Shown: in pieces, positions 33,595 to 62,786 of the stretch
Layout of the letters: every line of letters begins with the position of its first letter
Position numbering within the stretch: position 1 is the stretch's first letter
Source: an uncultured delta proteobacterium
GTDB taxonomy: Bacteria > Desulfobacterota > Desulfobacteria > Desulfobacterales > B30-G6
DNA: 64,000 bases
Direction of reading: 5' to 3'
NCBI GenBank assembly: GCA_963823335.1
Contig: CAWGLD010000006.1
Location: 64,001 to 128,000 of the forward strand
Notes under the pieces: model-generated
The model's input: only the letters and a program-made list of their open reading frames with translations
What the model was told of the DNA's origin: nothing
Database searches by the model: none
Made by a program: the position numbers and the translations under genes

Positions 33595-33603
33595 GATACA
33601 TCC

Positions 33604-33682: not shown

Positions 33683-33698
33683 CTTTCGGCCGTACGTT

Positions 33699-37255: not shown

Positions 37256-37330
37256 TCCTTATCCGTTCCTTTGGTTGTATATCAAGAAAGGTTGCATTTT
37301 TATCTCATCTGGAAGCACATCAAAATCAGG

Positions 37331-37837: not shown

Positions 37838-37897
37838 GTACAAACCTCCAAGGAATTTGAAGTATGTCGCAGCAGGCAAAGAGGAATGCGCTGGCTG

Positions 37898-40187: not shown

Positions 40188-41954
40188 TCAGGTTTCCAGT
40201 GATGTTTGATCATCGCTCATGGAAGCGCGCAGTCTCCGGGTAGCATCTTGATCGGCTCTGAGAGACCCTGTGTCGATTACCACGCCATAATCGCTTTTAG
40301 CCTTTTCAACACTTACATATCCATATCTGACATCTCTTTCCACCGCAGGGATATCTCTTTCCAACGGGGCACCGAAACCACCTCCTCCGGCGCTCTGAAA
40401 ATCAATGGTGTCACCCGGGTCGCAAAGCGTCAGGCCACTGGGGTCTCCGGGATGATCGTTTTTCAGAAAGCGGGCCTTGGAGCCGTTTTTCCCGCCGAAT
40501 ATCCCCCTAGGCGGGTATCGAAAACGACCAGCCTGAACGGCAATGGCTACCGGTGGCTCTGGTGCAAGAGCATCATCCGGAACACGGACGCGCATGCGGC
40601 GGCCCAAACCACCCCTCTGCTTTCCGGCACCGCCTGAATCACAGATGAGTTCCCGTGCAAGCACCATCAGAGGTGTGTCGCTTTCCAGGATTTCAACCGG
40701 TGTGTTGGCACCATTGGCGGGGAAAATGGCACACTGGTGTCCATCTTTGGCCCGGCTCGCCCCCAGACCACCGCCGCGAATAATCATGGTGTGAAATGGT
40801 TTCCCGTCATGCCGTTTTCCATAAAATATATTGGTTTGGGCCGGTGTCCCGCCGCTGTCCGCAATTATCCGGTCCGGGACGGCAATGGAAAGCGCCCTGA
40901 AAACCATTTCGGTCATAAAATGACCTACCTGCATGCGTGCGGCAACGGCAGCCGGGAACCGGCAGTTAACAACGCTGCCCTCGGGTGCCGTCATGGTTAC
41001 CGGGCGAATGGCGCCTTCATTTATAGGAAGATCCGGGTCGAAGACACTTTTGATGGCCATAAAAACATAGGCATAGGTGAAGTTATAGACAACATTGACC
41101 CCCCAGTTGACCTGGGGAGATGTGTTTGAAAAATCAACCTGAATGTCACTCCCATTTACCGCAACTGTCAGACAGATATGAATGTCATCACGTTTTCCCG
41201 CCCCCTCGATGACGCCCTCGTAGGGGTATACACCATCGGGAATACGATCGATCGCCTGCCGCATACTCTGCTCGGTTCTCTGAATGATTTCATCGGCGAG
41301 TCCTTCGAGGTTATCGAGACCTTCATCCGCCAGCATTTCAATAATTTTTTCACCGCAGACATGATTTGCCGCAACCTGTGAGCGGATGTCGCCGGTAACC
41401 TCCTCGGGTGTTCGAACATTCCAGCGAATCATCTCGAGGACATCCTTATTCAGTACACCCGCATCGTACAGTTTGACACGGGGAATAAAAAGACCTTCTT
41501 CAAACACCTCACGATTATCAGACGATACCCGTCCGCCGATATCCGAGTGATGAAACACACACGCCGTAAAGGCCACCGGTCGTTTCTTGTAGAAGATGGG
41601 GCTCAGGACGCAGACATCGTTCAGATGGCCTGCCAGTAACCACGGGTCGTTTACGATGATCACGTCACCGGGGTGATATTCACTCAAGGGCAGTGCTTGA
41701 ATCACTTTTTTTACACCCAGCGCCATGGCACCGGCTTGTCCCGGCGTACAAAACGTGCCCTGAACCAGTTCTTGGCCCCTGTGATCTGTAAACATGCATG
41801 TGTAATCATGGGCATCACGCAGCAGGCTCGAAAAGGCTGTTCTGGCAACCGATGCATCGGCTTCATCCACGATGGATATGAGACGACGCCAGAGAATTTC
41901 GAGACGAATGGGATCGAATATCGATTTGATTGGGTGGCTTGATTCAGGTGACAT
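40188..41954 (-). CDS. Hydantoinase B/oxoprolinase-family subunit
   Basis: HDYTC, NDPW-GHLND, HHSDIGG, NTPVE, GGGGFG. Confidence 0.92.
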   Translation of the reverse strand: MSPESSHPIKSIFDPIRLEILWRRLISIVDEADASVARTAFSSLLRDAHDYTCMFTDHRGQELVQGTFCTPGQAGAMALGVKKVIQALPLSEYHPGDVIIVNDPWLLAGHLNDVCVLSPIFYKKRPVAFTACVFHHSDIGGRVSSDNREVFEEGLFIPRVKLYDAGVLNKDVLEMIRWNVRTPEEVTGDIRSQVAANHVCGEKIIEMLADEGLDNLEGLADEIIQRTEQSMRQAIDRIPDGVYPYEGVIEGAGKRDDIHICLTVAVNGSDIQVDFSNTSPQVNWGVNVVYNFTYAYVFMAIKSVFDPDLPINEGAIRPVTMTAPEGSVVNCRFPAAVAARMQVGHFMTEMVFRALSIAVPDRIIADSGGTPAQTNIFYGKRHDGKPFHTMIIRGGGLGASRAKDGHQCAIFPANGANTPVEILESDTPLMVLARELICDSGGAGKQRGGLGRRMRVRVPDDALAPEPPVAIAVQAGRFRYPPRGIFGGKNGSKARFLKNDHPGDPSGLTLCDPGDTIDFQSAGGGGFGAPLERDIPAVERDVRYGYVSVEKAKSDYGVVIDTGSLRADQDATRRLRASMSDDQTSLET

Positions 41955-41997
41955 AAATCAGTTTTATCCTATATGTAACAATGGATGATAAAAATAG

Positions 41998-42074
41998 TTT
42001 TAAGTGTTAGGTTTTAAGTTTTAAGTTCCGCTAATGGCTGTTAGCTAACCTAACACCTAAAACTTAAAACCTAA
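41998..42074. repeat. Inverted heptamer array (TTTTAAG/CTTAAAA type); related array at ~46019-46098
   Basis: TTTTAAGTGTTAGGTTTTAAGTTTTAAG...CCTAACACCTAAAACTTAAAACCTAA. Confidence 0.7.
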
Positions 42075-42079
42075 ATCCG

Positions 42080-44176
42080 CTATAAATCTATCCACACAAA
42101 CCCATACGAATCCACCGTGCAGGCGGCATCTTCACCGATCACGATGGTGGATTCTCTCTCTTCTATAATTGCCGGTCCCTGAATAGCAGCACCTTGAAAG
42201 AGTTTCATCCGATCATACACCTCGTGAGGCAAAAACATCTTTCGCGTCAATGAAAATGCAGGGCGTGTTCCCTTCAGTGCATCTGTCAGCTGTCCTGTCT
42301 GCTTATCAAACCTGGGAAGTTGAAACGGTCTTTCCGGCTCACTGATCCGGACCTTGAATGTTACAAACTCGATCTGTGTTTCCGGATACGTTCGGCCATA
42401 GAGTTTCTCATAAGCCTGGTCGAAAAGATGACGAATATCAGAAATTTCCCACTCATAGAAAGGTTTGTTTTTCACGCTGAGATCAGTTTCGGCACCCTGA
42501 CCAATGAATCGCATCATAAGGGTTCTCTCAATACGCAAGGAATCGTCATCGATGGATTTTTGCAAAATAGCGGCACCCTCGGTCTCCAGGGTTTGGAAAA
42601 GATTCTCGATATAATCAAAATCGGCTTCGTCAAGTCTTACCCGATGACTCCTGGTCAGATCAAATGCCACCGGCGCTGTAAAAAATCCCAGAGCGGATCC
42701 AACACCTGCCAATGGGGGTACGAGTATTCTGGGTGCGTTGATCTTTTTTGCAAGCCCGTAGGCATGAACAGGCCCGGCGCCGCCGAAGGCCGAAATGGTG
42801 ACGATATTGGGGTTGCCGCCTTTTTCTGCAATGTGTGTTTTTGCTGCTGCGGCCATGGTTTCATTGATAAGGTCGTGGATGCCGAATGCGGCCTCCACCA
42901 GTGTGGTGCCCAGTGGTTTTGCAATTGTTTCCAGGATGGCATTTTCGGCAGCAGATTTGTCCAGTTTCATGCTGCCTCCCAGAAAATACTCCGGGTCCAG
43001 ATATCCCAGCACCAGGTCTGCATCGGTAACGGTCGGGTTGGTCCCTCCCTTACCATAGCAGACAGGGCCGGGGTCTGCGCCGGCGCTCTCCGGTCCCACC
43101 TGAAGCAGACCCATGCCACTTATCTTTGCCATGCTGCCACCGCCGGCACCGATTTCCATCAGATCGACAACCGGAACCTGAATGGGCAGTCCGCTGCCTT
43201 TTTTGAATCGCTGCACCCTTCCCACCTCAAAAGTGGAAACCATGCCTGCCTGCCCTTTTTGTATCAGACACGATTTAGCGGTGGTACCACCCATGTCAAA
43301 ACAGAACATGTCCTTGATCTGAAACAGGCCGCCATAGTGCTGGGATGCGATCACGGCAGCCGTAGGGCCAGATTCTATAATACGTACCGGATATTTACTG
43401 GCGGTTTCGATGGAGGTAATTCCGCCGCTGGATAGCATGATGAAAAGTTTTCCATTAAATCCTAGGGAGTTCAGTCTTGAAGAAAGTTTTTCAAGGTACT
43501 TGGATGTTATGGGCTTAACATATGCGTTCGTGACGGTTGTGCAGGTTCTTTCATATTCACGAATTTGGGGCAGAACCTCGAATGAAGTGGATAGTGAAAG
43601 TCCTGGTGCGAGCTTTTCTATCTCGGCTTTAACTGCTTTTTCGTGAATCGGGTTTTCAAAGGAATTGAGAAGACACACCGCCAAAGACTCGATCTGCATT
43701 TCCTGTAGTTCCTGCAGGACCGCAGCGATATCCTCTACCTGAATCGGCAGCAGGACTCTGCCGTCGCTGGCCACACGTTCGGCGATTTCCTTTCTGAGAA
43801 ACCGGGGAACCAGGGGCTCAGGATATTCCGCAAAAATATCATAGGCATCATAGCGAAGTTCTCTACCAAGTTCCAGCACATCTCTGAAACCCTGGGTGGT
43901 TATGAGGCCGGTCCTGGCACCTTTTCTTTCGATGATGGCATTGATAACCAGGGTGGTCCCATGAATAAATTCATCCGTAGAGGCCATAAATTCAGGGGCA
44001 TTGATTTCGAGCTGGCCAACGCCCTCTGCAACGGCGGTGGATGGATCCGAGGGGGTTGTCAAACACTTGTGCGTCTGGAATTCACCGGTCTGGTCATTCA
44101 CCAGTACAAAATCCGTAAATGTGCCGCCGATATCACAGCCCAAACGAAAGGCATTTTTCTTCACGTCATTCTCCAA
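42080..44176 (-). CDS. Hydantoinase A/oxoprolinase-family ATP-binding subunit
   Basis: DIGGTFTD, HGTT, ESGP, DMGGTT, IGAGGGS, SAGADPGP. Confidence 0.93.
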   Translation of the reverse strand: MENDVKKNAFRLGCDIGGTFTDFVLVNDQTGEFQTHKCLTTPSDPSTAVAEGVGQLEINAPEFMASTDEFIHGTTLVINAIIERKGARTGLITTQGFRDVLELGRELRYDAYDIFAEYPEPLVPRFLRKEIAERVASDGRVLLPIQVEDIAAVLQELQEMQIESLAVCLLNSFENPIHEKAVKAEIEKLAPGLSLSTSFEVLPQIREYERTCTTVTNAYVKPITSKYLEKLSSRLNSLGFNGKLFIMLSSGGITSIETASKYPVRIIESGPTAAVIASQHYGGLFQIKDMFCFDMGGTTAKSCLIQKGQAGMVSTFEVGRVQRFKKGSGLPIQVPVVDLMEIGAGGGSMAKISGMGLLQVGPESAGADPGPVCYGKGGTNPTVTDADLVLGYLDPEYFLGGSMKLDKSAAENAILETIAKPLGTTLVEAAFGIHDLINETMAAAAKTHIAEKGGNPNIVTISAFGGAGPVHAYGLAKKINAPRILVPPLAGVGSALGFFTAPVAFDLTRSHRVRLDEADFDYIENLFQTLETEGAAILQKSIDDDSLRIERTLMMRFIGQGAETDLSVKNKPFYEWEISDIRHLFDQAYEKLYGRTYPETQIEFVTFKVRISEPERPFQLPRFDKQTGQLTDALKGTRPAFSLTRKMFLPHEVYDRMKLFQGAAIQGPAIIEERESTIVIGEDAACTVDSYGFVWIDL

Positions 44177-44336: not shown

Positions 44337-45971
44337 CTAGAAGATGCCCGGCTCTTGCCACTCCCCAAAAATATCACGAAGAACGGCAGTCATCTCCCCG
44401 ACAGTGGCATATTCACGGCAGCAGTCCACCAGCAAGGGCATGACATTGTCCCCCTTTCTGGTTCCCTTGTCGAGTTCTTTTAAGGTGCGGTTCACTGCCT
44501 GGTTGTTACGAGAGCCCTTTAAATCCTGTAGACTTTTGATCTGTTTTTCAACCCAGGCTTCGTTATGCTCGTGAAGTTCCACATCAGGGCCGGTTTCGTC
44601 AACGTCGGTGTATTTATTTAAACCGATCTTGATATATTCCCCACTTTGCAGTCCTTTTTCATATTCATAAGCCTGCTGGGCCACTTTTCTCTGTATATAA
44701 CCGGATGAAACTGCAGCAATCATACCACCGACGTGCTGGATAGCTGTCCTTTCCTCCTGAACTTTGTCTTCCATCTGCTTGGTGAGCGTTTCGATAAAAT
44801 AGGATCCCGCCAAGGGGTCCACAGTGTCCCTCAGACCGACTTCATCCATGATGATTTCAAGCGTTCTGAGAGAAAGCAGAGCTGCACGAGGTGTGGGGAT
44901 GGTGTATGCTTCATCAAAGGAGCACAGCGCGGTTGTCTGGGCGCCACTGAGTGCGGCACCGAGAGCATAGAAGGCACTTCTCATGATGTTGTTTTCCGGT
45001 TGCTCTTTTGTCAGACCGCTGCCACCGCCACCAAAAAGGCCCCGTAAAAAGAGTTTCTTTTTATCCTGAATACCGTATTCATCCCTCAACATCCGGGCCC
45101 AAAGCTTTCTGGCTGACCTGAATTTGGCTATTTGCTCCCACAGGTTTCCAAAGACATTCAGGTTGAAGGAAAAACGCCCCACAAAATCTCCTACATCTAT
45201 ACCTCGCGCCGCTACATTGTCTATGTAGGATTTTGCAATTTCAAAAGCACAGGCGATTTCCTGTGAGGGTGTCGCACCTGATTCCCGGATGTGATAGCCG
45301 CAGACACTCACCGGATTGCACCTGGGCAGCGCTTTCATGCTGTATTCAATACTGTCGCCAACCAGCCTAACGGCATGTTCAACAGGAAATATCCAGGCCC
45401 CGCGACCAATCATCTCCTTCAGGATATCGTTCTGGGGGGTGGCGCTGATACGGTCTATGGCATAACCGGTTTTTTCTGCAAGAGCCTGATACATGGCCAG
45501 CGTGATACATGCAATGGCGTTGATGGTGAGCCCAGTACCAATCCGATCGAGGGGGATACCGTCAAAGGCGATTTCAAAATCCCGCAGAGAATCGACAGCC
45601 ATACCAACGCGACCGACCTCTCCGGCAGCAAGTGGACTGTCGGAGTCCAATCCCATCTGTGTCGGAAGATCAAAGGCGACATTCAGCCCGGTCTGGCCGT
45701 GTGAAATCATATATTTAAATCGTTTGTTGGTCTCTTCCGGTGTTCCAAAACCGGTATACTGGCGTGTCGTCCAGGCCCGACTGCGATAACCCTGGGGGTG
45801 CAGACTCCGGGTGAACGGGTATTCCCCGGGATCACCCAGGTCCTTTTGATAATCGAAACCTACCGCCGTAAGATCATCCGGTGTGTACACAGGTTTGACT
45901 TTGATACCCGATTGATATTCAACCTCTGTGATGGCCCCTTTTTCATCTTTGATATATTTGGCAACACCCAT
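44337..45971 (-). CDS. Acyl-CoA mutase large subunit (methylmalonyl-CoA mutase family)
   Basis: PGEYPFTR, RQYTGFG, AFDLPT, QNDILKE, GYHIRESG, DPLAGSY. Confidence 0.92.
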   Translation of the reverse strand: MGVAKYIKDEKGAITEVEYQSGIKVKPVYTPDDLTAVGFDYQKDLGDPGEYPFTRSLHPQGYRSRAWTTRQYTGFGTPEETNKRFKYMISHGQTGLNVAFDLPTQMGLDSDSPLAAGEVGRVGMAVDSLRDFEIAFDGIPLDRIGTGLTINAIACITLAMYQALAEKTGYAIDRISATPQNDILKEMIGRGAWIFPVEHAVRLVGDSIEYSMKALPRCNPVSVCGYHIRESGATPSQEIACAFEIAKSYIDNVAARGIDVGDFVGRFSFNLNVFGNLWEQIAKFRSARKLWARMLRDEYGIQDKKKLFLRGLFGGGGSGLTKEQPENNIMRSAFYALGAALSGAQTTALCSFDEAYTIPTPRAALLSLRTLEIIMDEVGLRDTVDPLAGSYFIETLTKQMEDKVQEERTAIQHVGGMIAAVSSGYIQRKVAQQAYEYEKGLQSGEYIKIGLNKYTDVDETGPDVELHEHNEAWVEKQIKSLQDLKGSRNNQAVNRTLKELDKGTRKGDNVMPLLVDCCREYATVGEMTAVLRDIFGEWQEPGIF

Positions 45972-46104: not shown

Positions 46105-46503
46105 TCATTTATTGCTGATTTCTTTTATTCCTTCAATCATAACGTCAAAAAGGGTTCCACCTGGATAGACGCCTTTGATGCCCATTTGCTCAAGTTTCAC
46201 GATGTCGCGTGCAGGTATGACACCGCCTACCACAACCCCGGTGGACTCAATGCCTTCCTGTGTCATCATCGCGAGAAGCTTTTCACAGATGCTAAGGTGA
46301 GCACCAGACATGATACTGAGCCCAATGATGTCAACGGCTTCCTGAACAGCTGTTCTTACAATCTGCTCAACCGGTTGATGAAGCCCGGTGTATACCACCT
46401 CCATGCCCGCGTCCCGAAGTGCCAGTGCAACAATCTTTGCGCCTCTGTCATGACCATCCAATCCAGGTTTTGCAATGAGTATTTTTATTTTTTTATCGCG
46501 CAT
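46105..46503 (-). CDS. Cobalamin-binding small subunit of the mutase
   Basis: KPGLDGHDRGAK (DxHxxG), SIMSGAH, GGVIP. Confidence 0.95.
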   Translation of the reverse strand: MRDKKIKILIAKPGLDGHDRGAKIVALALRDAGMEVVYTGLHQPVEQIVRTAVQEAVDIIGLSIMSGAHLSICEKLLAMMTQEGIESTGVVVGGVIPARDIVKLEQMGIKGVYPGGTLFDVMIEGIKEISNK

Positions 46504-46722: not shown

Positions 46723-47421
46723 CTAGCTCAACTCGTCATACGATTCCATTACCGCTTTCTTCCCACGGGCCAAATGCTCCCGGACAAGATTTTCAACACC
46801 GTCCGCATCTCGCTGTCTGATGCGGTCGAGCATATCTTTATGATCCTCATTGCTCATTTTCGCCAGTTTCTCATTTCTCAGTATCAGCTGTCGAAATCGA
46901 TAGATCTGATCGCGCAGATTATTGATCATATGGATCAGCTTCGGGCTTCTGCTCAAGGCATACAATAGATCGTGAAAATCTGTGTTGATGTCGGGAAGCG
47001 CGTCGAGATCTTTATTATCCAAATGTTTCTGATATATCTTGATCTTTTTCTCAAGAGGTTTAAGGTCTGTCGGACGATGCTTTTCGGCAGCTAATCGTGC
47101 TGCATAGCTTTCCAGAACGCTTCGAATACCGAATGTTTCTTCTACGTCCTCCCGGCTGAGCCCCAGCACATTGAAGCCACCCCGGGGAAGTTTTCGTAAA
47201 TAGCCTTCTCTTTCCAGTTTGTGGATAGCTTCTCTGACCGGTGTCCGGCTGATGCCGAGCGTTTCTGCCAAACGACTTTCGATGAGCCTTCCGCCCGGTG
47301 GCACATCACCTTTGATGATCGCGTTTTTCAGATTCTCGAACACATGCTGTCCGAGTGATTTTCGTTGACCGATTTTATCGAGTTCTTCCAATCCTGTGCC
47401 GCTGTCTTTTTGGGAACCCAT
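46723..47421 (-). CDS. GntR-family regulator with FCD domain
   Basis: GISRTPVREAI HTH; N-x-x-FH...EH...H FCD motif. Confidence 0.93.
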   Translation of the reverse strand: MGSQKDSGTGLEELDKIGQRKSLGQHVFENLKNAIIKGDVPPGGRLIESRLAETLGISRTPVREAIHKLEREGYLRKLPRGGFNVLGLSREDVEETFGIRSVLESYAARLAAEKHRPTDLKPLEKKIKIYQKHLDNKDLDALPDINTDFHDLLYALSRSPKLIHMINNLRDQIYRFRQLILRNEKLAKMSNEDHKDMLDRIRQRDADGVENLVREHLARGKKAVMESYDELS

Positions 47422-47470: not shown

Positions 47471-48661
47471 CTATATGACGCCTCTGCTTTTCAGAGCTTC
47501 GAGAGTTGCTGGATCATACCCCAGTTTCTGACCATAAATTTCATTGTTATGCTCACCAAAGCGGGGTGGAAACGTAAGCTGGCCCCCGCTGTTTTTTATA
47601 AATGAAGTCATGATGGGTGGTGGTGACAACGTAATTTGTTGGGAAGTGATGGGATCTTTGGCGAAGAGCAATTGTTTCTTGACCAATGGGTCTTGAATGA
47701 CATCCGTGATGGACTTGATCTTGCTGACAGGGACCGTTATGGACTGTAAGAGTTCGATAAGATCCTCGGAGGTCATTTCTTGGGTGATGGCATTCATGGC
47801 CTTATTCAAATTTGTAACATCCTGTATTCTACCGGAATTTTTCTCGTATTCTGGTTTGTCAAGGGATTTGAACATTGATTGCTTCACCAGCGTCTTCCAC
47901 TGTCGATCATTTCCGACCGCCATATAAATAAAGCCGTTTTGGGTTTTATAAACCGAAACAGGACAAAAAAATTCATGGGTGTTGCCTCTACGGGTAATTT
48001 TTTTTCCAAAACTGGACGTCAGGGTAATGGGAACCGTTAACCATGAAACAGAAGATTCGAACATGGACAAATCAATACGGCTCCCCTCTCCTGTGAATTG
48101 CTTTTTTAAAAGTGCTTTCATGAGGAGTCCGTAAGCATGTTCGCTGGTTCCCATGTCCGGCAGAGGTATGCCAAGCACCTGCGGATCACCATCCGCTGTC
48201 CCTGTGAGGTCCATCAGTCCTGATCTTGCCTGTAAAATCGGATCATAGGCACCCTCGTTGCTGTCCGGTCCGAATCCGGTGACACCCAGCCAGATGATGT
48301 CTTCCTTGACACTTTTGAGCCGATCGAAATCGATACCCAGTTTCTGATAGTTTTTTGGCAATTGATTGGTGATAAAGATATCGACGTTCAACGCATGAAT
48401 CAACCGATCAAAAATATCCCGTCCATCAGGATCGGCAAGATTCAGAGTTAAAGCCTTCTTTCCGGCATTGATACAAAGGTAATAGGCATTCATACGGTTC
48501 TCACTTAACACATTATCCCCGATCATCCTGTTAGGGTCTCCATAAACAGGGTGCTCCAGACGGATAATATTCATGCCGTCCTGGGCGAGTCGATAGGTAA
48601 GATACGGAACTACCGTGGCCTGTTCCAAGGATAACACCGTTATGGTTTTTAAAAAATCCAT
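47471..48661 (-). CDS. Class III (CaiB/BaiF) CoA transferase
   Basis: GDPNR, NAGKK, GFGPD, YDPILQARSG, GEHN. Confidence 0.92.
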   Translation of the reverse strand: MDFLKTITVLSLEQATVVPYLTYRLAQDGMNIIRLEHPVYGDPNRMIGDNVLSENRMNAYYLCINAGKKALTLNLADPDGRDIFDRLIHALNVDIFITNQLPKNYQKLGIDFDRLKSVKEDIIWLGVTGFGPDSNEGAYDPILQARSGLMDLTGTADGDPQVLGIPLPDMGTSEHAYGLLMKALLKKQFTGEGSRIDLSMFESSVSWLTVPITLTSSFGKKITRRGNTHEFFCPVSVYKTQNGFIYMAVGNDRQWKTLVKQSMFKSLDKPEYEKNSGRIQDVTNLNKAMNAITQEMTSEDLIELLQSITVPVSKIKSITDVIQDPLVKKQLLFAKDPITSQQITLSPPPIMTSFIKNSGGQLTFPPRFGEHNNEIYGQKLGYDPATLEALKSRGVI

Positions 48662-48943: not shown

Positions 48944-49156
48944 ATGGCTGATGTTAATGCTCCCATGCCCGGAAAAATCTGCGAAGTAAAAGTCAGTCCT
49001 GGGGATACCGTTATAGAAGATCAGGAAGTTTTGGTTCTCGAAGCAATGAAAATGGAAATGCCGATTGTCGCAACGGCCGCCGGCACGGTTAAATCCGTCA
49101 ACTGTAGTGAAGGGGATGCGGTACAGGGTGGCGATGTCCTTATGGTCATTGATTGA
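48944..49156 (+). CDS. Stand-alone biotin carboxyl carrier protein (70 aa)
   Basis: APMPG, LEAMKME biotinylation motif. Confidence 0.94.
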   Translation: MADVNAPMPGKICEVKVSPGDTVIEDQEVLVLEAMKMEMPIVATAAGTVKSVNCSEGDAVQGGDVLMVID

Positions 49157-49218
49157 TTTCGTGACAGGCATTTTTTTCCGGTTATACGAGTTGGGGTTTA
49201 TAGCGAAAGGGGGCCGGC

Positions 49219-50781
49219 ATGTCCGACCAGACCACACATAAAAGTGAGCTGAAACGCCTAGCGGCTCTCACGGAAAGGGCTGAACTGGGGGGCGGTGTTA
49301 AAACTATCGATAAACGTCATGCCCAGGGAAAGCTTACTGCCAGAGAACGCCTGACTCTTTTATTCGACCCTCATTCATTCGTGGAAATGAATCAACTTGC
49401 CGAGAGCCAGGCCGTTGATTTCGGCATGCAGGAAAAAAAGGTTCCCGGCGACGGTGTCGTCATCGGCTATGGTAACATTGATGAGCGGCTCGTTTTTGCC
49501 TATGCCCAGGATGCCACGGTGCTGGGAGGATCGGTTGGAACCGTTCACGGCCAGAAAATATGCCGTATCATGGATGAAGCTTTGAAGGTCAAGGCACCCA
49601 TCGTGGGGCTTTTCGATTCCGGAGGCGGCAGAATCCATGAGGGCTTTTTCGCATCCAAGGGTGTGGCCGGTATGTTTTACCGCAATACAGCGGCATCAGG
49701 TGTCATCCCCCAGATCTCTGCCATGATGGGACCCTGTGCCGGCGTATCGGTCTACTCCCCTGCCCTGACAGACTTCATTATCATGGTGGAGGGTACCAGC
49801 CAGATGGCCATTACCGGTCCGGGAGTGATAAAATCCGTTACCGGTGAGGATGTGACCCTGGAAGAGCTGGGTGGCGCAAAGGTGCACAGCGAAATAACCG
49901 GCCAGGCTCATCTTGTTGTCAATACCGACCAAGACTGCATTCAGTCAATTCGCAATCTCCTGGCCTATCTCCCCTCAAACAATGAAGCATCTCCACCCCT
50001 TGTAGAATCGAATGAAGACCCCTTTCGCTCGGATCCATCTTTGGAAGATATTGTTCCTGCAGATTTCAGAAAGGCATACGATATGCGAAAGGTCATTACA
50101 CGCGTGGTGGACCAGGAGACCTTCCACGAACTGCTTCCCAGATATGCAAAAAGCATCATCATCGGATTTGCGCGAATGGATGGGCAGACCATCGGCATTG
50201 TCGCTAACCAGCCTATTTATCTTGCAGGATGTCTGGATGTCAACAGCTCGGACAAGGCCGCCAGATTCATTCGATTCTGTGATGCCTTCAATATCCCCTT
50301 GATCAACCTTGTGGATGTGCCCGGATATTTTCCAGGTGTCAAACAGGAGTACGCCGGTATCATCCGGCATGGCGCCAAAATGCTGTATGCCTATGCCGAG
50401 GCAACCGTTCCCAAAATCACCCTGGCCTTGAGAAAGGAATACGGAGGCGCCGTCATGGCCATGTGCTGCGTAGGAATGGGTGTGGACCAGATGCTGGCCT
50501 GGCCGATTGCCAAACTGGTTGTCCTGGACACCACTACGGCCGTGAACCTGATCTTTCGAAAAGAAATCCAATCTGCCGAGGATCCTGACGAATTCAGACA
50601 GCGCATGATCAAGGCCTATGACCAGAAGTATTCAAATCCTTTTCATGCGGCTTCCAACATGCTCGTGGATGCGATCATCGAACCAAGCCAGACACGACCT
50701 GAGCTAATCAAAGCCCTGCGAATGCTTAAAACAAAAAAACGTCCCGGACCTTTCAGACGACATGGGAATATACCACTATGA
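49219..50781 (+). CDS. Acyl-CoA carboxyltransferase/decarboxylase (PccB/MmdA family)
   Basis: GKLTARER, DSGGGRI, YSPALTDF, DVPGYFPG. Confidence 0.92.
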   Translation: MSDQTTHKSELKRLAALTERAELGGGVKTIDKRHAQGKLTARERLTLLFDPHSFVEMNQLAESQAVDFGMQEKKVPGDGVVIGYGNIDERLVFAYAQDATVLGGSVGTVHGQKICRIMDEALKVKAPIVGLFDSGGGRIHEGFFASKGVAGMFYRNTAASGVIPQISAMMGPCAGVSVYSPALTDFIIMVEGTSQMAITGPGVIKSVTGEDVTLEELGGAKVHSEITGQAHLVVNTDQDCIQSIRNLLAYLPSNNEASPPLVESNEDPFRSDPSLEDIVPADFRKAYDMRKVITRVVDQETFHELLPRYAKSIIIGFARMDGQTIGIVANQPIYLAGCLDVNSSDKAARFIRFCDAFNIPLINLVDVPGYFPGVKQEYAGIIRHGAKMLYAYAEATVPKITLALRKEYGGAVMAMCCVGMGVDQMLAWPIAKLVVLDTTTAVNLIFRKEIQSAEDPDEFRQRMIKAYDQKYSNPFHAASNMLVDAIIEPSQTRPELIKALRMLKTKKRPGPFRRHGNIPL

Positions 50782-50815
50782 TATTGATCGGCTCCTTTGG
50801 GGCAAATCAATATTA

Positions 50816-50897
50816 AAGGTTCAAGGGGCCAAGGATTCGAGGGTTCGAGGGTGGCTGAGGGCGATCAGCTGACAGCAGCATCCTCGCCTCCCAGCAT
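50816..50897 (+). repeat. Composite octamer-array element, copy D
   Basis: Core GGCTGAGGGCGATCAGCTGACAGCAGC flanked by octamer runs. Confidence 0.7.
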
Positions 50898-50967
50898 ACA
50901 AGGGATCAAGATACTGATTTTACTCGTATGTCTATGAAAAAAAACCAATCGAAACAGGGAGAATATC

Positions 50968-52116
50968 ATGGACTTTACCCTCTCCAAGGAACATAAGGAT
51001 ATCCAGAAAGCAGCCAGAGAATTTGCCGTGGGTGAATTTACCCATGTGGCACGTGAATTCGATTTGAATGAAACCTTTCCGCAAAAGATCCTGGACAAAG
51101 CCCGTAAGCTGGATCTTATCGGTCTGTTCATCCCGGAGGCATACGGCGGACCGGGTCTGGGTTTCCTGGAGCATGCATTGGTGCTGGAAGAATTCTGGAA
51201 AATTGATCCTGGTATCGGTCAGCAGCTCTGTTCAGTTTCGTTTGGTGCCGAAGAGCTGCTCCTGTTTGGTACAGAAGAACAGAAAAAAACATTTCTCAAT
51301 CCGATTTTCAGCGGCAAGGCCATTATGGGATTTGCCATTACCGAACCGGATGCCGGGAGCGACACGGCCGCTGTTGCAACAACCGCTGTAAGAGACGGTG
51401 ACGACTATATTATCAACGGCAGCAAGATCATGATCGGTAATGGCACGGTGGGAACATTTATGCTGGTATTTTGTCTGACCAATCCGGATGAGAAATCAAA
51501 GACAGCCCGGCACAGCGTTATCATTGTCGAAACCGATCGACAGGGGTATAAAGCCGATAAAATGGACGGCAAGATGGGACTCAGATGTTCTGACACAGCC
51601 GCTGTCTACTTCAACAATGTGCGGGTACCCAAAGAAAATCTGCTGGGTAGGGAAGGCCATGGCTTTATCCAACTGATGCATTTCTTCGATCGCTCCAGAG
51701 CCTACGTGGCCGCCCACGGCCTTGGCTTGGCACAGGGCGCCTTGGATCAGGCCGTCAAACACGTCAGAGGCAGAAAACAGTTCGGGCGCCCTTTGGGTGC
51801 TTTCCAGGCGACCCAGTTCAAGATTGCCGAAATGGCAACCAAGATCGAAGCCGCCAGGAACATGGTCTACAAATCCGCCTGGCTTCTGGACAACGGCATG
51901 GCTGATACCAAACTCACCGCCATGGCCAAACTGTATGCCTGTCATGTGGCTGTGACGGTTGTTGACGAAGCTCTTCAATTGCACGGCGGATACGGGTATT
52001 TCAACGATTATGACATCGAACGATTCTACCGGGCCGCCAAGGTACTCGAAATATATGAAGGCACCAAAGAGGTTGAAAAGATAATTATTTCTCGGGAAAT
52101 TTTGGGGAAATTATAG
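50968..52116 (+). CDS. Acyl-CoA dehydrogenase
   Basis: FAITEPDAGSD, RKQFG, QLHGGYG, IYEGT. Confidence 0.95.
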   Translation: MDFTLSKEHKDIQKAAREFAVGEFTHVAREFDLNETFPQKILDKARKLDLIGLFIPEAYGGPGLGFLEHALVLEEFWKIDPGIGQQLCSVSFGAEELLLFGTEEQKKTFLNPIFSGKAIMGFAITEPDAGSDTAAVATTAVRDGDDYIINGSKIMIGNGTVGTFMLVFCLTNPDEKSKTARHSVIIVETDRQGYKADKMDGKMGLRCSDTAAVYFNNVRVPKENLLGREGHGFIQLMHFFDRSRAYVAAHGLGLAQGALDQAVKHVRGRKQFGRPLGAFQATQFKIAEMATKIEAARNMVYKSAWLLDNGMADTKLTAMAKLYACHVAVTVVDEALQLHGGYGYFNDYDIERFYRAAKVLEIYEGTKEVEKIIISREILGKL

Positions 52117-56321: not shown

Positions 56322-56337
56322 GTTACAGCAATTTAAG

Positions 56338-57787: not shown

Positions 57788-57896
57788 TGTCTCCTCCTTC
57801 CTGATAGGTATTTAAATGGTTTGATGGATTGCGCTACAGGGTAAGATTTGGTGTAACACGCTGAAAAAGATTCATTTTTTAACTTGACTTCAAACA

Positions 57897-57911
57897 TGTA
57901 TACAGTATACA
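57897..57911. promoter_or_regulatory. GntR-type operator palindrome, second copy
   Basis: TGTATAC-A-GTATACA flanked by inverted CTTGACT/AGTCAAG (divergent -35-like hexamers). Confidence 0.75.
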
Positions 57912-57976
57912 GATTTTAGTCAAGAGAATAATGATACGTATCCAATTTTTTAACATAAATAAAGAAGGAAATCTCC

Positions 57977-59998
57977 ATGAAATCACGCATTGAACTGTAC
58001 CCCACCGCCCACAACCCTCTCTTGATCAAACCGGATCGTGGATTGCCCACCGCCGCTGCCGTTATTGGGGCCGGTACCATTGGTCCCGATATTGGCTATT
58101 TTCTAAAAAGCGCCCTGCCAAATATGCCCCTTACCCTTGTGGATGTCGATGACAAACCCCTAAAGGCGGCAGAAAAACGATTGGCCGCTTATGCGGCAAA
58201 GGCTGTCGAGCGAAGAAAAATGCGACCGGAACAGGCAAAAACCGTTTTGAAAGACATCCGCTACACCACGGATTACCAGCAGCTCAAAAATTGTGATCTG
58301 GTCATCGAAGCGGCAACGGAAAACATACCTTTGAAACAGAAAATCTTTGCTCAAGTTGAAAATATTGTCAGTCAAGACACCATCATTACATCCAACACCA
58401 GCTCCATCCCGGCCGACCGTTTATTCATGAAAATGAAACACCCGGAACGAACCTCGGTCACCCATTTTTTTGCGCCTGCATGGCGGAGTCTTCCCGTGGA
58501 AGTTATCTCATGGCCTGGCGCCTCTCAGAAAACCATTGATTATCTTTTCTGGTTTCTGGCAAAAACCGGCAAAGCACCCATCGTGACGGACAATGCCATC
58601 TGTTTTGTCCTGGATCGTATTTTCGACAACTGGTGCAATGAATCCGCGTTCCTCCTGAGCCAGGCGACGGCCAGTCAAATTGACAGGGTGGCCGAAGAAT
58701 TTGTTTTTGCCGGCCCTTTTTTTGTACTGAACATGGCCAACGGCAATCCCATTATTATTGAAACAAATACTCTGCAGATGGAGGAAGGAGATCATTACAA
58801 ACCAGCACCGATACTTCATTCCGTCGATCGCTGGGCAACCCATCGTCCCGGTAGCGGGCCTGAGATCCCTGAAAATCTTCACACCGCCATTCGAGATCGA
58901 CTGCTGGGCATTCTGTTTTCTCAGTCATTTGATATTATCGACAGGGGCATCGGCACTCTGGCAGATCTCAATTTCGGTTGCCAGATTGCCCTGGGATTTA
59001 AAGAAGGCCCCCTTGATGTTATGAAACGGCTGGGAAAGACCGAAGTACATCGCATTATGACACGTTTTCAAGAAGACCGCCCAGGATTTCCTGAGGCTGC
59101 CCAGCCATTTGAAACCTATCAATCGTTTCATCGATACATTCTGACGGACGACATGGACGGTGTAAAGATTATCACCATCCGTCGTCCCCAGGCAATGAAT
59201 GCCCTCAATGACGATGTAACCGAAGAAATATGCCAGGTGCTGGCATCCAGCGAAAAGGACCCTGCCGTAAAAGGGTTTGTCATTACAGGGTTCGGTAGCA
59301 ACGCTTTCTCAGCGGGTGCCGACATCGGCAAGTTTCCGACCATGCTGGGAGATAAGGATGCATCTATGCAGTATGCCAGGGATTGCGCTAAAGTCCAGTG
59401 CTACATGGATCAAATGAACAAACCCGTGGTCGCAGCCCTCAATGGCTTGGCCATGGGAGGTGGACTGGAGGTCGCCATTCGGTGTCATGGTATTGTTTCG
59501 GTTGAAAAGGCAGTTCTGCAATTTCCGGAAATCACGTTGGGTATTCTGCCCGGTATTGGCGGTTGTGTGGTGCCTTACCGTAAGTGGCCCCAGGGGGCAG
59601 CGCTCTTTCATGAAATGATTCTGTTTGGAAAGCCGGTCCCGGCGACAACAGCCGCTGAGATGGGAATCATCAATGGTCTTGTCAAGGATCCGGCGGATCT
59701 GATAGCTGCGGCTATCAAAGAGGTTCAGCGGCTCCAAAACAACATACCGAGAATCAGTAACGCCGCCGTTGACATCCCTGAGATATCGATTCCGGAATCG
59801 CCTGCTGCCGGCAAACAGCTCCTGAGTAAGGAAGCCGTTTCCATTACCGCTGATACCATTCGAAAGGCATCGGCTGCCGACGATCTCGAAACAGCACTGG
59901 AGATAGGGTATGAGGGTTTCGGCGATATCGCCTGCTCTGCTGCCGCCAAAGAAGGAATATCCGCATTTCTACAAAAACGAAAACCGAACTTCAAATAA
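57977..59998 (+). CDS. 3-hydroxyacyl-CoA dehydrogenase / enoyl-CoA hydratase fusion
   Basis: GAGTIG, SNTSS, HFFAP; C-terminal FSAGADI, GGGLE, FPEITLG. Confidence 0.92.
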   Translation: MKSRIELYPTAHNPLLIKPDRGLPTAAAVIGAGTIGPDIGYFLKSALPNMPLTLVDVDDKPLKAAEKRLAAYAAKAVERRKMRPEQAKTVLKDIRYTTDYQQLKNCDLVIEAATENIPLKQKIFAQVENIVSQDTIITSNTSSIPADRLFMKMKHPERTSVTHFFAPAWRSLPVEVISWPGASQKTIDYLFWFLAKTGKAPIVTDNAICFVLDRIFDNWCNESAFLLSQATASQIDRVAEEFVFAGPFFVLNMANGNPIIIETNTLQMEEGDHYKPAPILHSVDRWATHRPGSGPEIPENLHTAIRDRLLGILFSQSFDIIDRGIGTLADLNFGCQIALGFKEGPLDVMKRLGKTEVHRIMTRFQEDRPGFPEAAQPFETYQSFHRYILTDDMDGVKIITIRRPQAMNALNDDVTEEICQVLASSEKDPAVKGFVITGFGSNAFSAGADIGKFPTMLGDKDASMQYARDCAKVQCYMDQMNKPVVAALNGLAMGGGLEVAIRCHGIVSVEKAVLQFPEITLGILPGIGGCVVPYRKWPQGAALFHEMILFGKPVPATTAAEMGIINGLVKDPADLIAAAIKEVQRLQNNIPRISNAAVDIPEISIPESPAAGKQLLSKEAVSITADTIRKASAADDLETALEIGYEGFGDIACSAAAKEGISAFLQKRKPNFK

Positions 59999-60031: not shown

Positions 60032-61888
60032 ATGAAAGAAGATTTTTTTCTCGGTAACGGAGCCATCGCGCTGGGCCTTCTGGAAGCCGGATGCCAGGTA
60101 CTCACATCTTATCCGGGAACACCTAGTTCGGAGATACTGCCCGAAGCGGTCCGTTTGATAAAATCTGAAAAACTCAATACCTATGTGGAATGGTCTACCA
60201 ATGAGAAAGTGGCCCTGGACAATGCATACGCTGCCGCCATTAGCGGCAAACGATCGGCATGTATCATGAAGCAGGTAGGTCTGAACGTTGCAGCAGATTC
60301 GCTGATGAGTGCGGCTTATCTGGGAACCGTGGGGGGGCTGGTCATTATCTCCTGTGACGATCCCGGCCCGCATTCATCTCAGACGGAGCAGGATACACGC
60401 CTGATGGCCCGCTTGGCGAAAGTCCCGGTACTGGATCCGTCTAACCCGCAGGAGGCTCGGGAGATGGTTATAACTGCCTTCGAACTTTCAGAAAAATACA
60501 GACTGCCGGTTATTCTGAGACCGGCTATCCGGGTATGTCATGCCAGGCAAAACCTGACCTGGGACAGCCTCCAGGCCAACCATCGCCCAGCTGAATTTAA
60601 AAAGGATCCCTTGCGTTGGGCCGCCACGCCAAAATATCGATTTCTGCTCCACAAAGAGCTCAATAACAAGTTGAAAAAAATTGCACAAGAATTCGACGAT
60701 CTAAAGCCCTACAACACACATGATCTGAAGCCTGGAATGCATTTCCCTTTGGGTATTATTGCCGGCGGGGTTCCAAGTTCCGTTGTTAAAGACATTTTAA
60801 ATGACTATGGGCGCACAGATATCCCTATACTGAAAATCGGGGCGCCCTACCCCTTTCCCGACAGCCTCGCCATGACATTTTTACAGGCATGCGACAGGGT
60901 TCTGGTGATTGAAGAAACCGATACGCTGATTGAATACTGTCTGCGGAATCGCGCAAAGGTTTTAGGCCGTTTCACCAGTCATGTCCCGTCTGAAGGTGAG
61001 CTGGTGCCCGAGAAAGTTGAAGGAGTTCTGGAAGCGGTTTTGGCAGAACTCGATCTGCCAAAACTGAACAGCGATTCTCTGGATACTGCCCAGGCTCTCG
61101 TAAACAGTCTTGAACTGCCCATACGAAAACCGACCCTCTGTTCAGGGTGTATGCACCGGTCAGTCTTTTACAGCATTCGCAAGTCCCGTCCCAAGGCAAT
61201 TTTTACCTCCGATATCGGATGTTATACACTGGGTCTCAATCTGGGAAGCGTGGACACGGTTCTGGACATGGGCGCCTCCATCACCATGGCTTCAGGGTTT
61301 TACCATGCCTATGCACAGGATGGTAAGCAGCAACCGATCGTTGCGACCATCGGCGACTCTACCTTTTACCATTCCGGACCTGCCGGCCTGTTGAACGCCG
61401 TCTACAATGATGCCCGATTTGTACTGGTAATTCTGGACAATATGACAACCGCCATGACAGGCATGCAGCCGACCCCATCACTTGGAATACGGGCCGACGG
61501 CAGCAAAGGCAAACAGATACCGCTCGAGAGACTCATAGCAGGATGTGGTATCGACTTCATAGAGGTGATCGACCCCTATGGGCTGAAAGATCTGCACAAA
61601 ACACTCAAGAAAGCGTTTGCCTACGTAAAGGACCCTGATGGTGGTATTGCCGTCGTCATAGCCCGTCATGCTTGCGTCATTGCATACAGGGATCTGGCAA
61701 TCCAAAACAGAAAGGAAGTTACCATAACCGATGAGTGTATTGCGTGCAACCACTGCATAGAACGATTCGAATGTCCAGCCCTTTATCATGACGCCCATAA
61801 CGATAAAACGGCTATCAATCCGGCGCTGTGTATCGGATGCGCCGTCTGCGTTGATGTTTGCCCCAAACAGGCGATTGTGGCTAAATAG
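60032..61888 (+). CDS. iorA: Indolepyruvate:ferredoxin oxidoreductase alpha subunit
   Basis: YPGTPSSEI, NEKVA, MKQVGLNVA, SDIGCY, GDSTF, C-terminal ferredoxin Cys motifs. Confidence 0.93.
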   Translation: MKEDFFLGNGAIALGLLEAGCQVLTSYPGTPSSEILPEAVRLIKSEKLNTYVEWSTNEKVALDNAYAAAISGKRSACIMKQVGLNVAADSLMSAAYLGTVGGLVIISCDDPGPHSSQTEQDTRLMARLAKVPVLDPSNPQEAREMVITAFELSEKYRLPVILRPAIRVCHARQNLTWDSLQANHRPAEFKKDPLRWAATPKYRFLLHKELNNKLKKIAQEFDDLKPYNTHDLKPGMHFPLGIIAGGVPSSVVKDILNDYGRTDIPILKIGAPYPFPDSLAMTFLQACDRVLVIEETDTLIEYCLRNRAKVLGRFTSHVPSEGELVPEKVEGVLEAVLAELDLPKLNSDSLDTAQALVNSLELPIRKPTLCSGCMHRSVFYSIRKSRPKAIFTSDIGCYTLGLNLGSVDTVLDMGASITMASGFYHAYAQDGKQQPIVATIGDSTFYHSGPAGLLNAVYNDARFVLVILDNMTTAMTGMQPTPSLGIRADGSKGKQIPLERLIAGCGIDFIEVIDPYGLKDLHKTLKKAFAYVKDPDGGIAVVIARHACVIAYRDLAIQNRKEVTITDECIACNHCIERFECPALYHDAHNDKTAINPALCIGCAVCVDVCPKQAIVAK

Positions 61889-62001
61889 AGGGTGGTTGAG
61901 GGTTAGAGGGGTTGGAGGGGTTCGGCTTTTGGTTACCCTTACAAGTGGCTCACCAATTACATGAGCCTAAGAATTCAGAAGTCAGAAGTTCGTAAAGCTC
62001 C

Positions 62002-62163
62002 AAATTGTTTTAATGCTGGAAACCGAATGAACATCGAACATCGAACGTCCAACATCGAATTTTGAATTTGAAAAGACGAACTAACAGAAATAATTTGGTA
62101 TTGGTTTTTTGTTTTCATTCAACATTGAACGTTCGATGTTCGATGTTGGACGTTGGACGTTCG
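62002..62163. repeat. Inverted pair of AACATCG heptamer arrays between iorA and iorB
   Basis: Forward array 62029-62067 and inverted array ~62112-62163. Confidence 0.85.
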
Positions 62164-62216
62164 TCTTTATCATGTCATCAGTAATAAATTAAGCATTCAA
62201 AACTGAAGGAGGCTAT

Positions 62217-62786
62217 ATGCCTACCATAAATTTTGTACTCAGCGGCCTGGGTGGCCAGGGCATCCTGTTTATGACCAAAATCATTGCCAATACGGCATTG
62301 CGTAAAGGCTACAATGTCATGGGAGCGGAAACACATGGCATGGCACAGCGAGGAGGCTCTGTCATTTCTCACCTCAGGTTAGGCAATGTCAACAGCAGCC
62401 TTGTCAAAACTGGTTCAGCACAGTTCCTGCTGGCTCTTGAAGAAAATGAAGCCTACCGCAATCTTCCCTTTCTTGCAAAAAACGGACACCTATACAGCGA
62501 CACGGTTTCAGGCGATTTTCCTATGCCGAAGGTCAAACCCTATCTTGATAAAATGGGTATACGATACGATGCCCTGCCGGCCGGCAAAATCGCTCTTGAA
62601 TTAGGTGCGCCTGTGTCCTCCAATCTGGCCATGATTGGCTTTTTTGCCGCATTTCAGGAGGGACCTTTTGCAGCGGATGATTTTCAAGAGACCATCGAGA
62701 GCATCAGTCCGGGACGATTCAAGGATATCAACTTGCGGGTTTTTGAAAAAGGTCTTTCTGCAGGTAATACGGCTAGAGCATTATGA
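62217..62786 (+). CDS. iorB: Indolepyruvate:ferredoxin oxidoreductase beta subunit
   Basis: GLGGQG, ETHGMAQRGGSV. Confidence 0.93.
   Translation: MPTINFVLSGLGGQGILFMTKIIANTALRKGYNVMGAETHGMAQRGGSVISHLRLGNVNSSLVKTGSAQFLLALEENEAYRNLPFLAKNGHLYSDTVSGDFPMPKVKPYLDKMGIRYDALPAGKIALELGAPVSSNLAMIGFFAAFQEGPFAADDFQETIESISPGRFKDINLRVFEKGLSAGNTARAL

Follow-up and report, generated by a model that had tools for sequence, protein, structure and literature searches.

A carboxyltransferase and a conventional acyl-CoA dehydrogenase as a proposed replacement of IaaF in iaa-type gene clusters of Desulfobacterales

Gene content of the divergent locus

We analysed a 64,000-nucleotide stretch of DNA from an uncultured delta proteobacterium of the Desulfobacterales (contig CAWGLD010000006.1), hereafter called the window, which corresponds to G000:C6:64001-128000 of a genome (G000) of 4.37 Mb in 11 contigs, 93.9% complete. 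Within it, three plus-strand genes encode a small biotin carrier, a carboxyltransferase (CT) and an acyl-CoA dehydrogenase (ACAD), and lie divergently from a mutase operon that resembles the iaa operon of Aromatoleum aromaticum. An earlier note had described this arrangement, and the open reading frames (ORFs) were confirmed at the positions listed in Table 1. From the comparisons reported here, we consider it probable that the biotin carboxyl carrier protein (BCCP)-CT-ACAD operon is a two-enzyme, non-orthologous replacement of IaaF, which is a decarboxylating benzylmalonyl-CoA dehydrogenase, in an iaa-type pathway of anaerobic indoleacetate breakdown, in which the CT, with biotin, would decarboxylate (2-aminobenzyl)malonyl-CoA and the ACAD would lead to 2-aminocinnamoyl-CoA.

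Table 1. Genes and sites of the window, with positions counted from its first nucleotide.
Feature	Position	Strand	Remarks
Biotin carrier	48944..49156	+	70-aa free-standing biotinyl domain, EAMKM, Lys36
CT, PccB/12S/MmdA type, distinct clade	49219..50781	+	520 aa; proposed (2-aminobenzyl)malonyl-CoA:biotin carboxyltransferase
ACAD, conventional, YEG motif, Bcd/MCAD/CarC group	50968..52116	+	382 aa, all ACAD domains; proposed 3-(2-aminophenyl)propionyl-CoA dehydrogenase
Perfect 8-1-8 palindrome TTGTATAC-T-GTATACAA	48745..48761	.	Divergent promoter region, CoA-transferase/carrier; putative GntR/FCD operator
Second palindrome copy ATGTATACAGTATACAG	57896..57912	.	Perfect 15-bp core; between TrpB-like gene and hydroxyacyl-CoA dehydrogenase/hydratase-IOR operon
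Family III CoA-transferase (IaaL-like)	47471..48661	-	First gene of the divergent iaa-like operon
GntR/FCD regulator	46723..47421	-	Candidate binder of the palindrome
B12-binding mutase small subunit (IaaH-like)	46105..46503	-	
B12 acyl-CoA mutase large subunit (IaaG-like)	44337..45971	-	Proposed maker of the substituted malonyl-CoA
Hydantoinase/oxoprolinase-type A and B subunits	40188..44176	-	Lactam ring opening
PaaK-type aryl-acetate CoA ligase (IaaB-like)	38840..40132	-	
Molybdenum (Mo) hydroxylase	34931..38779	-	Mo, 2Fe-2S and FAD subunits
TRAP transporter DctPQM	31802..34724	-	
Fused 3-hydroxyacyl-CoA dehydrogenase/enoyl-CoA hydratase	57977..59998	+	Next beta-oxidation steps
Indolepyruvate:ferredoxin oxidoreductase (IOR) alpha and beta	60032..62786	+	TIGR03336 658 bits, cut-off 650.9; possible direct indoleacetyl-CoA source

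The set of genes that makes up an iaa-type cluster is complete in the window (aryl-acetate CoA ligase, molybdenum hydroxylase, hydantoinase A/B, family III CoA-transferase and split B12 mutase), and each of these core genes has orthologs in clusters that bear etfBA and an ACAD with a GGG motif. The mutase large subunit shared 36% identity with the genome's true methylmalonyl-CoA mutase (MCM), as against 63-92% with its counterparts in iaa-like clusters.

The 70-aa protein combines the Biotin_lipoyl fold (Pfam PF00364, 77.2 bits, cut-off 22.1) with the (E)AMKM motif, in the sequence VLEAMKMEM, and thus has both features of a biotin carrier domain. On its model scores it is of the OadA/5S type, with 57.9-61.9 bits on the OadA and PycB models versus 32 bits on AccB; its closest relative in G000 is the C-terminal biotin domain of a 5S/OadA-like protein (45% identity).

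The window CT matched Pfam Carboxyl_trans (PF01039) over profile positions 2-493 of 493, at 598.5 bits (cut-off 22.3), and is therefore full-length. Its top NCBIfam match was TIGR01117 (mmdA), where its 738.9 bits fell under the subfamily cut-off of 998.8; the housekeeping CT, at 872.3 bits, likewise fell under it. PDB entries 1on3, 1x0u and 1vrg were matched at 549-591 bits. Overall, seven CT genes were found in the genome. The housekeeping methylmalonyl-CoA set lies on contig C1 and consists of SucCD, a 5S/OadA-like protein, the CT, MeaB, MCM and an epimerase; the MCM is full-length (1246 bits, cut-off 876), and the 5S/OadA-like protein, 670 aa long with a fused biotin domain, adjoins the housekeeping CT. 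It is the only such protein in the genome, and none was found near the window CT.

The loops AGGAVYSPA and YGGA are glycine-rich active-site loops of PccB, and the YGGA loop binds biotin in that enzyme. The window CT and its relatives (81 CTs; FastTree, two sequences shorter than 450 aa left out) formed one tight clade, distant from the housekeeping CT, with a signature of its own in both loops. In all 81 CTs, the first loop reads AG-V-[SA]-VYSPA (AG-V-S-VYSPA in the window) and the second YGGA-VM-AM-CC, while the housekeeping paralog has AGGAVYSPA and kept the usual YGGAY(D/I/L)xMGSK. YGGA itself is conserved in the window CT and in the whole clade. The change in the second loop falls on the position of PccB Asp422, which, according to parts of PMC7835884 and PMC5187497, faces the acyl group.

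The CT and carrier might nevertheless be an ordinary methylmalonyl-CoA/propionyl-CoA carboxyltransferase, acting as a transcarboxylase or decarboxylase in propionate/succinate metabolism and merely lying beside the iaa-like cluster. This would fit the top family match (mmdA/PccB), the retention of a phenylalanine found in short-chain enzymes (see below) and the membership of the adjacent mutase in the MCM family. We judge it very unlikely: a complete housekeeping set is present on C1, whose CT scores 872 versus 739 bits on TIGR01117; the window CT is 52% identical to that enzyme and has its own active-site signature; and, as described in the next section, it shares the iaa operator and excludes IaaF-type genes. 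The methylmalonyl-CoA enzyme that the earlier note had allowed for as an alternative is encoded elsewhere, with 5S, MeaB and MCM, and is not the window CT.

The window ACAD carries the motif EIYEGT, as did all motif-alignable orthologs at 71-97% identity. Parts of PMC8360864 describe a GGG instead of the YEG catalytic motif in every member of the IaaF subclass, and state that the iaa operons of sulfate reducers have an iaaF orthologue plus a dedicated electron-transfer flavoprotein (ETF). A quick IQ-TREE analysis of 52 ACADs separated a clade of the window type (SH-aLRT 100) from a clade of cluster-borne GGG ACADs (98); the latter, which served as the reference IaaF-type clade, consists of GGG ACADs from clusters of Desulfobacterota, without the Aromatoleum aromaticum protein. 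No ACAD of G000 fell within the IaaF-type clade in this tree, and a search of G000 with an IaaF-type (GGG) query gave no match at E<=1e-80. Four other ACADs of G000 carry GGG and belong to a clade neighbouring the IaaF type, so GGG alone is insufficient to define the IaaF-type group. The solved structures nearest to the window ACAD are butyryl-CoA dehydrogenases, MCAD and CarC; the last is caffeyl-CoA reductase, which interconverts an arylacryloyl-CoA and an arylpropionyl-CoA.

Distribution of the module among iaa-type clusters

A search with the window CT returned 80 loci (70-92% identity), all in metagenome-assembled genomes of Desulfobacterota. An ACAD orthologous to that of the window (at least 70% identity) was present in 53 of these and directly downstream of the CT in 50; CoA-transferase or mutase genes of the iaa-like core occurred in 36, and etf genes in 0 of the 80. 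Since the ACAD follows the CT directly in 50 loci and the iaa-like core is found in 36, chance does not account for the proximity of the three genes. At least three gene arrangements were observed: the divergent one of the window; a colinear one, CT-ACAD-(IOR)-CoA-transferase-GntR-mutase; and one with the CT within a ligase-Mo-hydantoinase-CT-hydratase operon. At L035, the fused hydroxyacyl-CoA dehydrogenase/hydratase gene directly followed the CT. In loci of the Desulfosarcinaceae type (L012, L048, L051, L053, L055 and L073), 3-8 kb of unrelated cargo lay between the CoA-transferase and the CT, with genes for PqiA/MlaD/lipoprotein, MFS, rhodanese-metallo-beta-lactamase, TusA, PilZ and adenylate cyclase-AAA proteins. 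Scanning this cargo DNA revealed no carrier and no membrane subunit; an enoyl-CoA hydratase gene was divergent from the CT in four of the six scanned loci of this type.

Twenty further loci, anchored on the mutase and taken from genomes across the phylum, were all iaa-like. Twelve contained a GGG ACAD (RFLL(Y)GGGTHE) and 11 contained etfBA; neither a CT nor a carrier was found in any of the 20. Orthologs of the CoA-transferase (56-89% identity) were found both in CT-type and in IaaF-type clusters.

The two types were mutually exclusive. Among 301 sampled genomes of Desulfobacterales, with an IaaF-type gene counted at 61% identity or above, 59 had an iaa-type mutase: 30 with the CT and without an IaaF-type gene, 24 with an IaaF-type gene and without the CT, five with neither and none with both. 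The five genomes with neither were 71-89% complete and came from families that are usually of the CT type. In a FastTree phylogeny of 46 mutases (partial ORFs left out), 25 of the 26 CT-type sequences formed one clade (support 0.918), nested within IaaF-type sequences, and the exception, L070, had an IaaF-type cluster from the same order as its partner (0.993). This topology shows the IaaF type to be ancestral and the CT type to be derived. The pattern thus reflects about two replacements, or a single transfer of the module, and then inheritance without reversal across at least 11 GTDB families; it also shows that BCCP/CT/ACAD moves as one block. A division between strict and facultative anaerobes, which the earlier note had proposed to look for, was contradicted: in this order and phylum, themselves strictly anaerobic, IaaF-type clusters with etfBA were frequent.

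The CT and the iaa-like genes also share a palindrome, located in the divergent promoter region (Table 1). Its perfect 15-bp core had two matches in the 4.37-Mb genome, both at divergent promoters of this island; core matches with two mismatches numbered 13, versus about 14 expected by chance. Among class-A loci with at least 300 bp of upstream sequence, 46 of 52 had the core at most 600 bp upstream of the CT when up to two substitutions were allowed. These include cargo-bearing loci, where the operator now stands on both sides of the insertion. The core was also present upstream of the CoA-transferase in at least six of the 20 IaaF-type loci. Upstream of the CT it was found in none of six class-B loci and none of seven hydantoinase-CT loci, both described below. 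At L057, the operator lay 99 bp upstream of a CT that would be about 2.5 Mb away from the mutase if L057 belongs to genome G458, as matching figures suggest. The GntR/FCD regulator of the cluster is the candidate binder of the palindrome.

Proposed pathway and fate of the carboxyl group

In the proposed pathway, the B12 mutase would convert (2-aminophenyl)succinyl-CoA to (2-aminobenzyl)malonyl-CoA, and the CT would transfer the free carboxyl group to protein-bound biotin, leaving 3-(2-aminophenyl)propionyl-CoA. The biotin would be held by the 70-aa carrier in this lineage and by a trans-encoded carrier elsewhere. The YEG ACAD, depending on ETF, would then oxidise 3-(2-aminophenyl)propionyl-CoA to 2-aminocinnamoyl-CoA, which would enter beta-oxidation via the fused hydroxyacyl-CoA dehydrogenase/hydratase, and all of these genes would form one regulon under the GntR-type operator. 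The CT is placed before the ACAD because decarboxylation would yield a stabilised enolate only if the malonyl half-thioester is saturated. Parts of PMC8360864 describe the IaaF step as chemically unusual, with a natural electron acceptor that is still unknown, and report that phenylpropionyl-CoA was never released by IaaF; free arylpropionyl-CoA would thus be diagnostic of the CT variant. The comparisons show gene content, synteny, exclusivity with IaaF-type genes, a shared operator and active-site signatures, whereas we infer the substrate, the direction of the reaction, the use of biotin in lineages without the carrier gene and any energy coupling.

The (amino)benzylmalonyl-CoA decarboxylase or transcarboxylase suggested in the earlier note is supported, as to its place in the pathway, by the exclusivity with IaaF-type genes and the shared iaa operator, the substrate being deduced. 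Two outcomes had been named as speaking against it, namely an enzyme acting only on methylmalonyl-CoA or propionyl-CoA and a dehydrogenase that is itself a decarboxylating IaaF. As far as these can be tested in silico, the results favour the earlier suggestion, since the ACAD has YEG, not GGG, and falls in a separate clade.

A different division of labour is conceivable, in which the YEG ACAD itself performs the oxidative decarboxylation and the CT is accessory, serving CO2 salvage, a side product or wrong enantiomer, or carboxylation. The decarboxylating glutaryl-CoA dehydrogenase keeps YEG, according to parts of PMC8360864, and the class-B CTs lie beside a GGG ACAD, so that the presence of a CT is compatible with that of an ACAD presumed to decarboxylate. 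On chemical grounds, however, C2-C3 oxidation would leave the carboxyl group on an sp2 carbon, from which no vinylogous loss of CO2 is expected; the CT and ACAD genes, neighbours in 50 of 80 loci, are passed on and relocated together; and the only biotin carboxylase gene over cut-off lies in a separate AccC-BCCP-CT operon. We hold this alternative to be quite unlikely.

Several observations weigh against the two-enzyme replacement of IaaF. The carrier lay beside the CT in 15 of the 80 loci (one subclade and L064) and was missing there in the other 65, and a search for a close trans-encoded carrier ortholog in five CT-type genomes without an adjacent carrier found none. The window CT retains the Phe of GMFYRN, which parts of PMC5187497 describe as universal in CT subunits for acyl groups of up to four carbons and as Gly in the medium-chain MccB, so that its pocket is not obviously enlarged in the known manner. 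No epimerase gene was found in the CT operon. In view of the groupings in the mutase tree, the exclusivity represents about two evolutionary events and not 54 independent ones. Moreover, the CTs of the six class-B loci (L014-L018 and L032; CT at about 10001-11550) stand beside a divergent GGG ACAD from the sister group of the IaaF type (about 8640-9786, minus strand), with an aldehyde:ferredoxin oxidoreductase and a sigma-54 activator nearby; neither iaa genes nor the iaa operator were found in these six loci, and the pair fits a simple rule of CT replacing IaaF poorly. Seven further CTs of the clade directly follow hydantoinase A/B, and at least two of these seven loci lack a mutase within 10 kb. 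Finally, the label IaaF-type rests on the published motif and the cluster context, and the case as a whole is one of comparative genomics.

Contiguous hydantoinase A, hydantoinase B and CT genes were observed at L019-L022, L028, L031, L034, L066 and L079 (for example, L022:6071-13733). The clusters at L019 and L022 also contain an M24 peptidase, Hdr/MvhD-like proteins and an ACAD, and that at L019 in addition MarR, a CoA ligase and a Mo hydroxylase; the ACAD motif of hydantoinase-CT loci reads YTG where alignable. These loci may belong to a pathway in which lactam opening gives the malonyl-type thioester directly.

The patchy occurrence of the carrier raises the alternative that the CT works in the iaa pathway without biotin, as a plain decarboxylase that conserves no energy, like the CT-fold malonate decarboxylase subunits, the carrier being a late and dispensable addition. 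Besides the 65 loci without an adjacent carrier and the five genomes without a close trans ortholog, it is in keeping with this that in none of the arrangements seen does a membrane or 5S gene join the module. Against it, the YGGA loop is conserved clade-wide; one subclade and L064 have recruited, immediately upstream of the CT and governed by the same operator, a carrier whose EAMKM is intact; and other biotin domains were present in every genome checked, the best trans matches in the five genomes being 5S-fused domains and small ORFs of 40-54% identity. We consider a biotin-free CT unlikely. The carrier, which the earlier note had counted as part of the module, is a real gene in the window and a lineage-specific, not a constant, companion of the CT.

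The earlier note was correct in finding neither a biotin carboxylase nor a Na+-pump beta subunit in the window, and the genome holds a single copy of each. The sole biotin carboxylase over cut-off (C1:485733) belongs to its own operon, and the linkage of biotin carboxylase and CT expected of an ATP-dependent acyl-CoA carboxylase was not found for the window CT. The sole OadB (C1:966465) scored 472 bits on TIGR01109 and has an OAD_gamma-like ORF upstream; no alpha subunit or carrier gene lies alongside this pair (G000:C1:965957-967536; L002:7958-9536). The arrangement expected of a Na+-translocating decarboxylase, a beta subunit (PF03977/TIGR01109) and gamma/delta subunits encoded with alpha, was found neither in the window nor in any of the 80 CT loci. 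Likewise, the genome-wide operator scan for partner genes (OadGB, 5S, thiolase, ETF) detected no copies beyond the two promoter regions. The search for OadB/GcdB partners that had been called for thus yielded one OadB, one gamma-like subunit and one 5S/OadA-like protein in the genome, and none in the window. OadB was found in 29 of the 30 CT-type genomes and in 22 of the 24 with an IaaF-type gene; being nearly universal in both, it was dropped as a discriminator.

Because the OadB/gamma-like pair and the 5S/OadA-like protein exist elsewhere in the genome, both a decarboxylase and a transcarboxylase are conceivable. The parts of a Na+ decarboxylase are scattered across the genome, and the His-rich tail of the gamma-like protein more likely binds the OadA-like 5S protein. 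Taking the two-enzyme replacement of IaaF as given, discharge of carboxybiotin at a single OadB-type Na+ pump shared with GcdA is a tentative proposal, to which some other fate of carboxybiotin is equal in our estimation; Na+-pump coupling is slightly ahead of carboxyl transfer to pyruvate by the 5S/OadA-like protein, which is itself possible at best. Taken as a whole, it seems doubtful that the CT serves as a soluble alpha subunit and forms, with the single OadB/gamma module shared with GcdA, a (2-aminobenzyl)malonyl-CoA decarboxylase that conserves energy by translocating Na+. If it were, one sodium pump would work with exchangeable, pathway-specific and separately regulated CT heads, and part of an ATP would be gained at a step wasted by IaaF-type organisms.

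On contig C3, an ACAD that passes the Acd equivalog model (777 bits, cut-off 470) precedes a 577-aa GcdA-like CT, so that the glutaryl-CoA step is already split in G000, as in obligate anaerobes. Neither a carrier nor a membrane subunit is encoded alongside this pair (G000:C3:45970-49573; L103:2971-6573). Another module, without biotin carboxylase, was observed at G000:C8:93848-99719 (L104:2848-8719); it combines a tandem pair of MmdA-like CTs with a 111-aa AccB-type carrier, a GGG-motif ACAD, an enoyl-CoA hydratase and a FabK-like reductase.

MCM-type mutases act on one enantiomer of methylmalonyl-CoA and PccB-type CTs on the other. A paralog of the VOC-family methylmalonyl-CoA epimerase is encoded at G000:C6:128614-129036 (minus strand), about 0.6 kb past the window end, and is weak on TIGR03081 (73.8 bits, cut-off 115). 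Its orthologs (L099:8058-8585, L100:8043-8480, L086:2005-2427 and L008:16733-17119) lie in IaaF-type clusters, directly upstream of the mutase genes in L099 and L100. This protein is a candidate benzylmalonyl-CoA epimerase.

Known counterparts, downstream genes and minor observations

The closest known counterpart is IaaF of the Aromatoleum aromaticum iaa operon, which, according to parts of PMC8360864, occupies the same pathway position, between the product of an IaaGH-type mutase and a cinnamoyl-CoA analogue; ligase, Mo hydroxylase, hydantoinase A/B, CoA-transferase, mutase and a GntR-type regulator are common to that operon and the window. The difference is that IaaF is one GGG enzyme, whereas here a CT and a YEG ACAD would act via free arylpropionyl-CoA, with no dedicated etfBA in the cluster.

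A comparable split is described in parts of PMC5852087 (citing Wischgoll 2009), in which obligate anaerobes use a non-decarboxylating Acd and the Na+-pumping glutaconyl-CoA decarboxylase GcdABCD. In both cases a combined oxidative decarboxylation would be divided between a dehydrogenase and a biotin enzyme, and G000 has Acd, the GcdA-like CT and one OadB. The proposed order is reversed, however, with decarboxylation first, the window CT is of the PccB/MmdA type and not of the GcdA type, and no membrane subunit is linked to it.

Homology to MmdA/12S/PccB and a proposed 2-substituted malonyl-CoA substrate relate the CT to MmdABCDE and to the 12S/5S/1.3S transcarboxylase, from which it differs in its score below the mmdA cut-off, in having no beta, delta or 5S gene adjacent and in the proposed aminobenzyl instead of methyl substituent. 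The carrier is a bare 70-aa domain and has neither the linker nor the assembly peptide that MmdC or 1.3S possesses.

A sequence of substituted succinyl-CoA, B12 mutase, substituted malonyl-CoA, CT and beta-oxidation is shared with anaerobic alkane degradation, although the substrate class differs. There, a PccB/'mcd' CT is proposed to decarboxylate (2-methylalkyl)malonyl-CoA, in parts of PMC6776118 and PMC6163223, and the latter calls this step 'not conclusively described'. MccB is likewise a PccB homolog for bulky 2-substituted malonyl-CoA and is non-acidic at the PccB Asp422 position; as described in parts of PMC5187497, it is biosynthetic, works with an ATP-dependent biotin carboxylase and has Phe replaced by Gly, whereas the window CT keeps Phe and has altered AGG and YGGAY loops.

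In our literature search, no description of a carboxyltransferase in an iaa cluster was found, although a prior mention cannot be excluded; the CT-plus-dehydrogenase variant of the iaa pathway, in a group of marine sulfate reducers, seems not to have been described before. Comparative genomics supports this variant well. One version of the anaerobic auxin/tryptophan-side-chain pathway has been studied biochemically, and the CT and ACAD would be a second solution to the IaaF step. The variant is common: 30 of the 301 genomes sampled from this order, a major one among marine sulfate reducers, have it, and it also turns up in estuary RNA libraries. It raises the question of whether a PccB-type CT accepts arylmethyl-malonyl-CoA, which bears on the never-demonstrated decarboxylation in anaerobic alkane degradation, and the questions of whether the energy of decarboxylation is conserved and whether a single Na+ pump serves several soluble CTs.

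A few other genes separate the ACAD from the downstream plus-strand genes for the fused hydratase and IOR. The second operator, whose position is conserved in L004, L010, L030, L038, L063 and others, groups a TrpB-like PLP enzyme, the fused hydroxyacyl-CoA dehydrogenase/hydratase and IOR into the same putative regulon (window 56414-62786). In view of this second operator, the island may be fed from tryptophan via indolepyruvate to indoleacetyl-CoA, besides free indoleacetate. The putative operator and regulon, now defined, can be used for annotating iaa-type clusters.

Eighteen RNA-library runs, mostly estuarine, contained part of the stretch. Between window positions 40001 and 60000, contigs from four runs (95-100% identity) covered 29 of the 30 bins for two of the runs and all 30 for the remaining two, and contigs of three runs bridged the carrier and CT genes. 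Such contigs may include DNA, show no single transcript, strand or level, and their uncovered bins are not evidence; the four studies are of the same year and habitat and may be one campaign. Coverage of both operons is therefore weak support. Contig joints and loose ends were located at 48859-48894, 52148-52173 and 56356.

Moreover, short dispersed intergenic repeats in the form of TTTTAAG/TTTTAGG arrays were observed at window 41994-42078 and 46016-46047, and a 24-nt direct repeat was present after the ACAD gene (52146-52169) and after the PGDH gene (56329-56352). The short repeats of the window are probably copies of the genome's dispersed intergenic elements.

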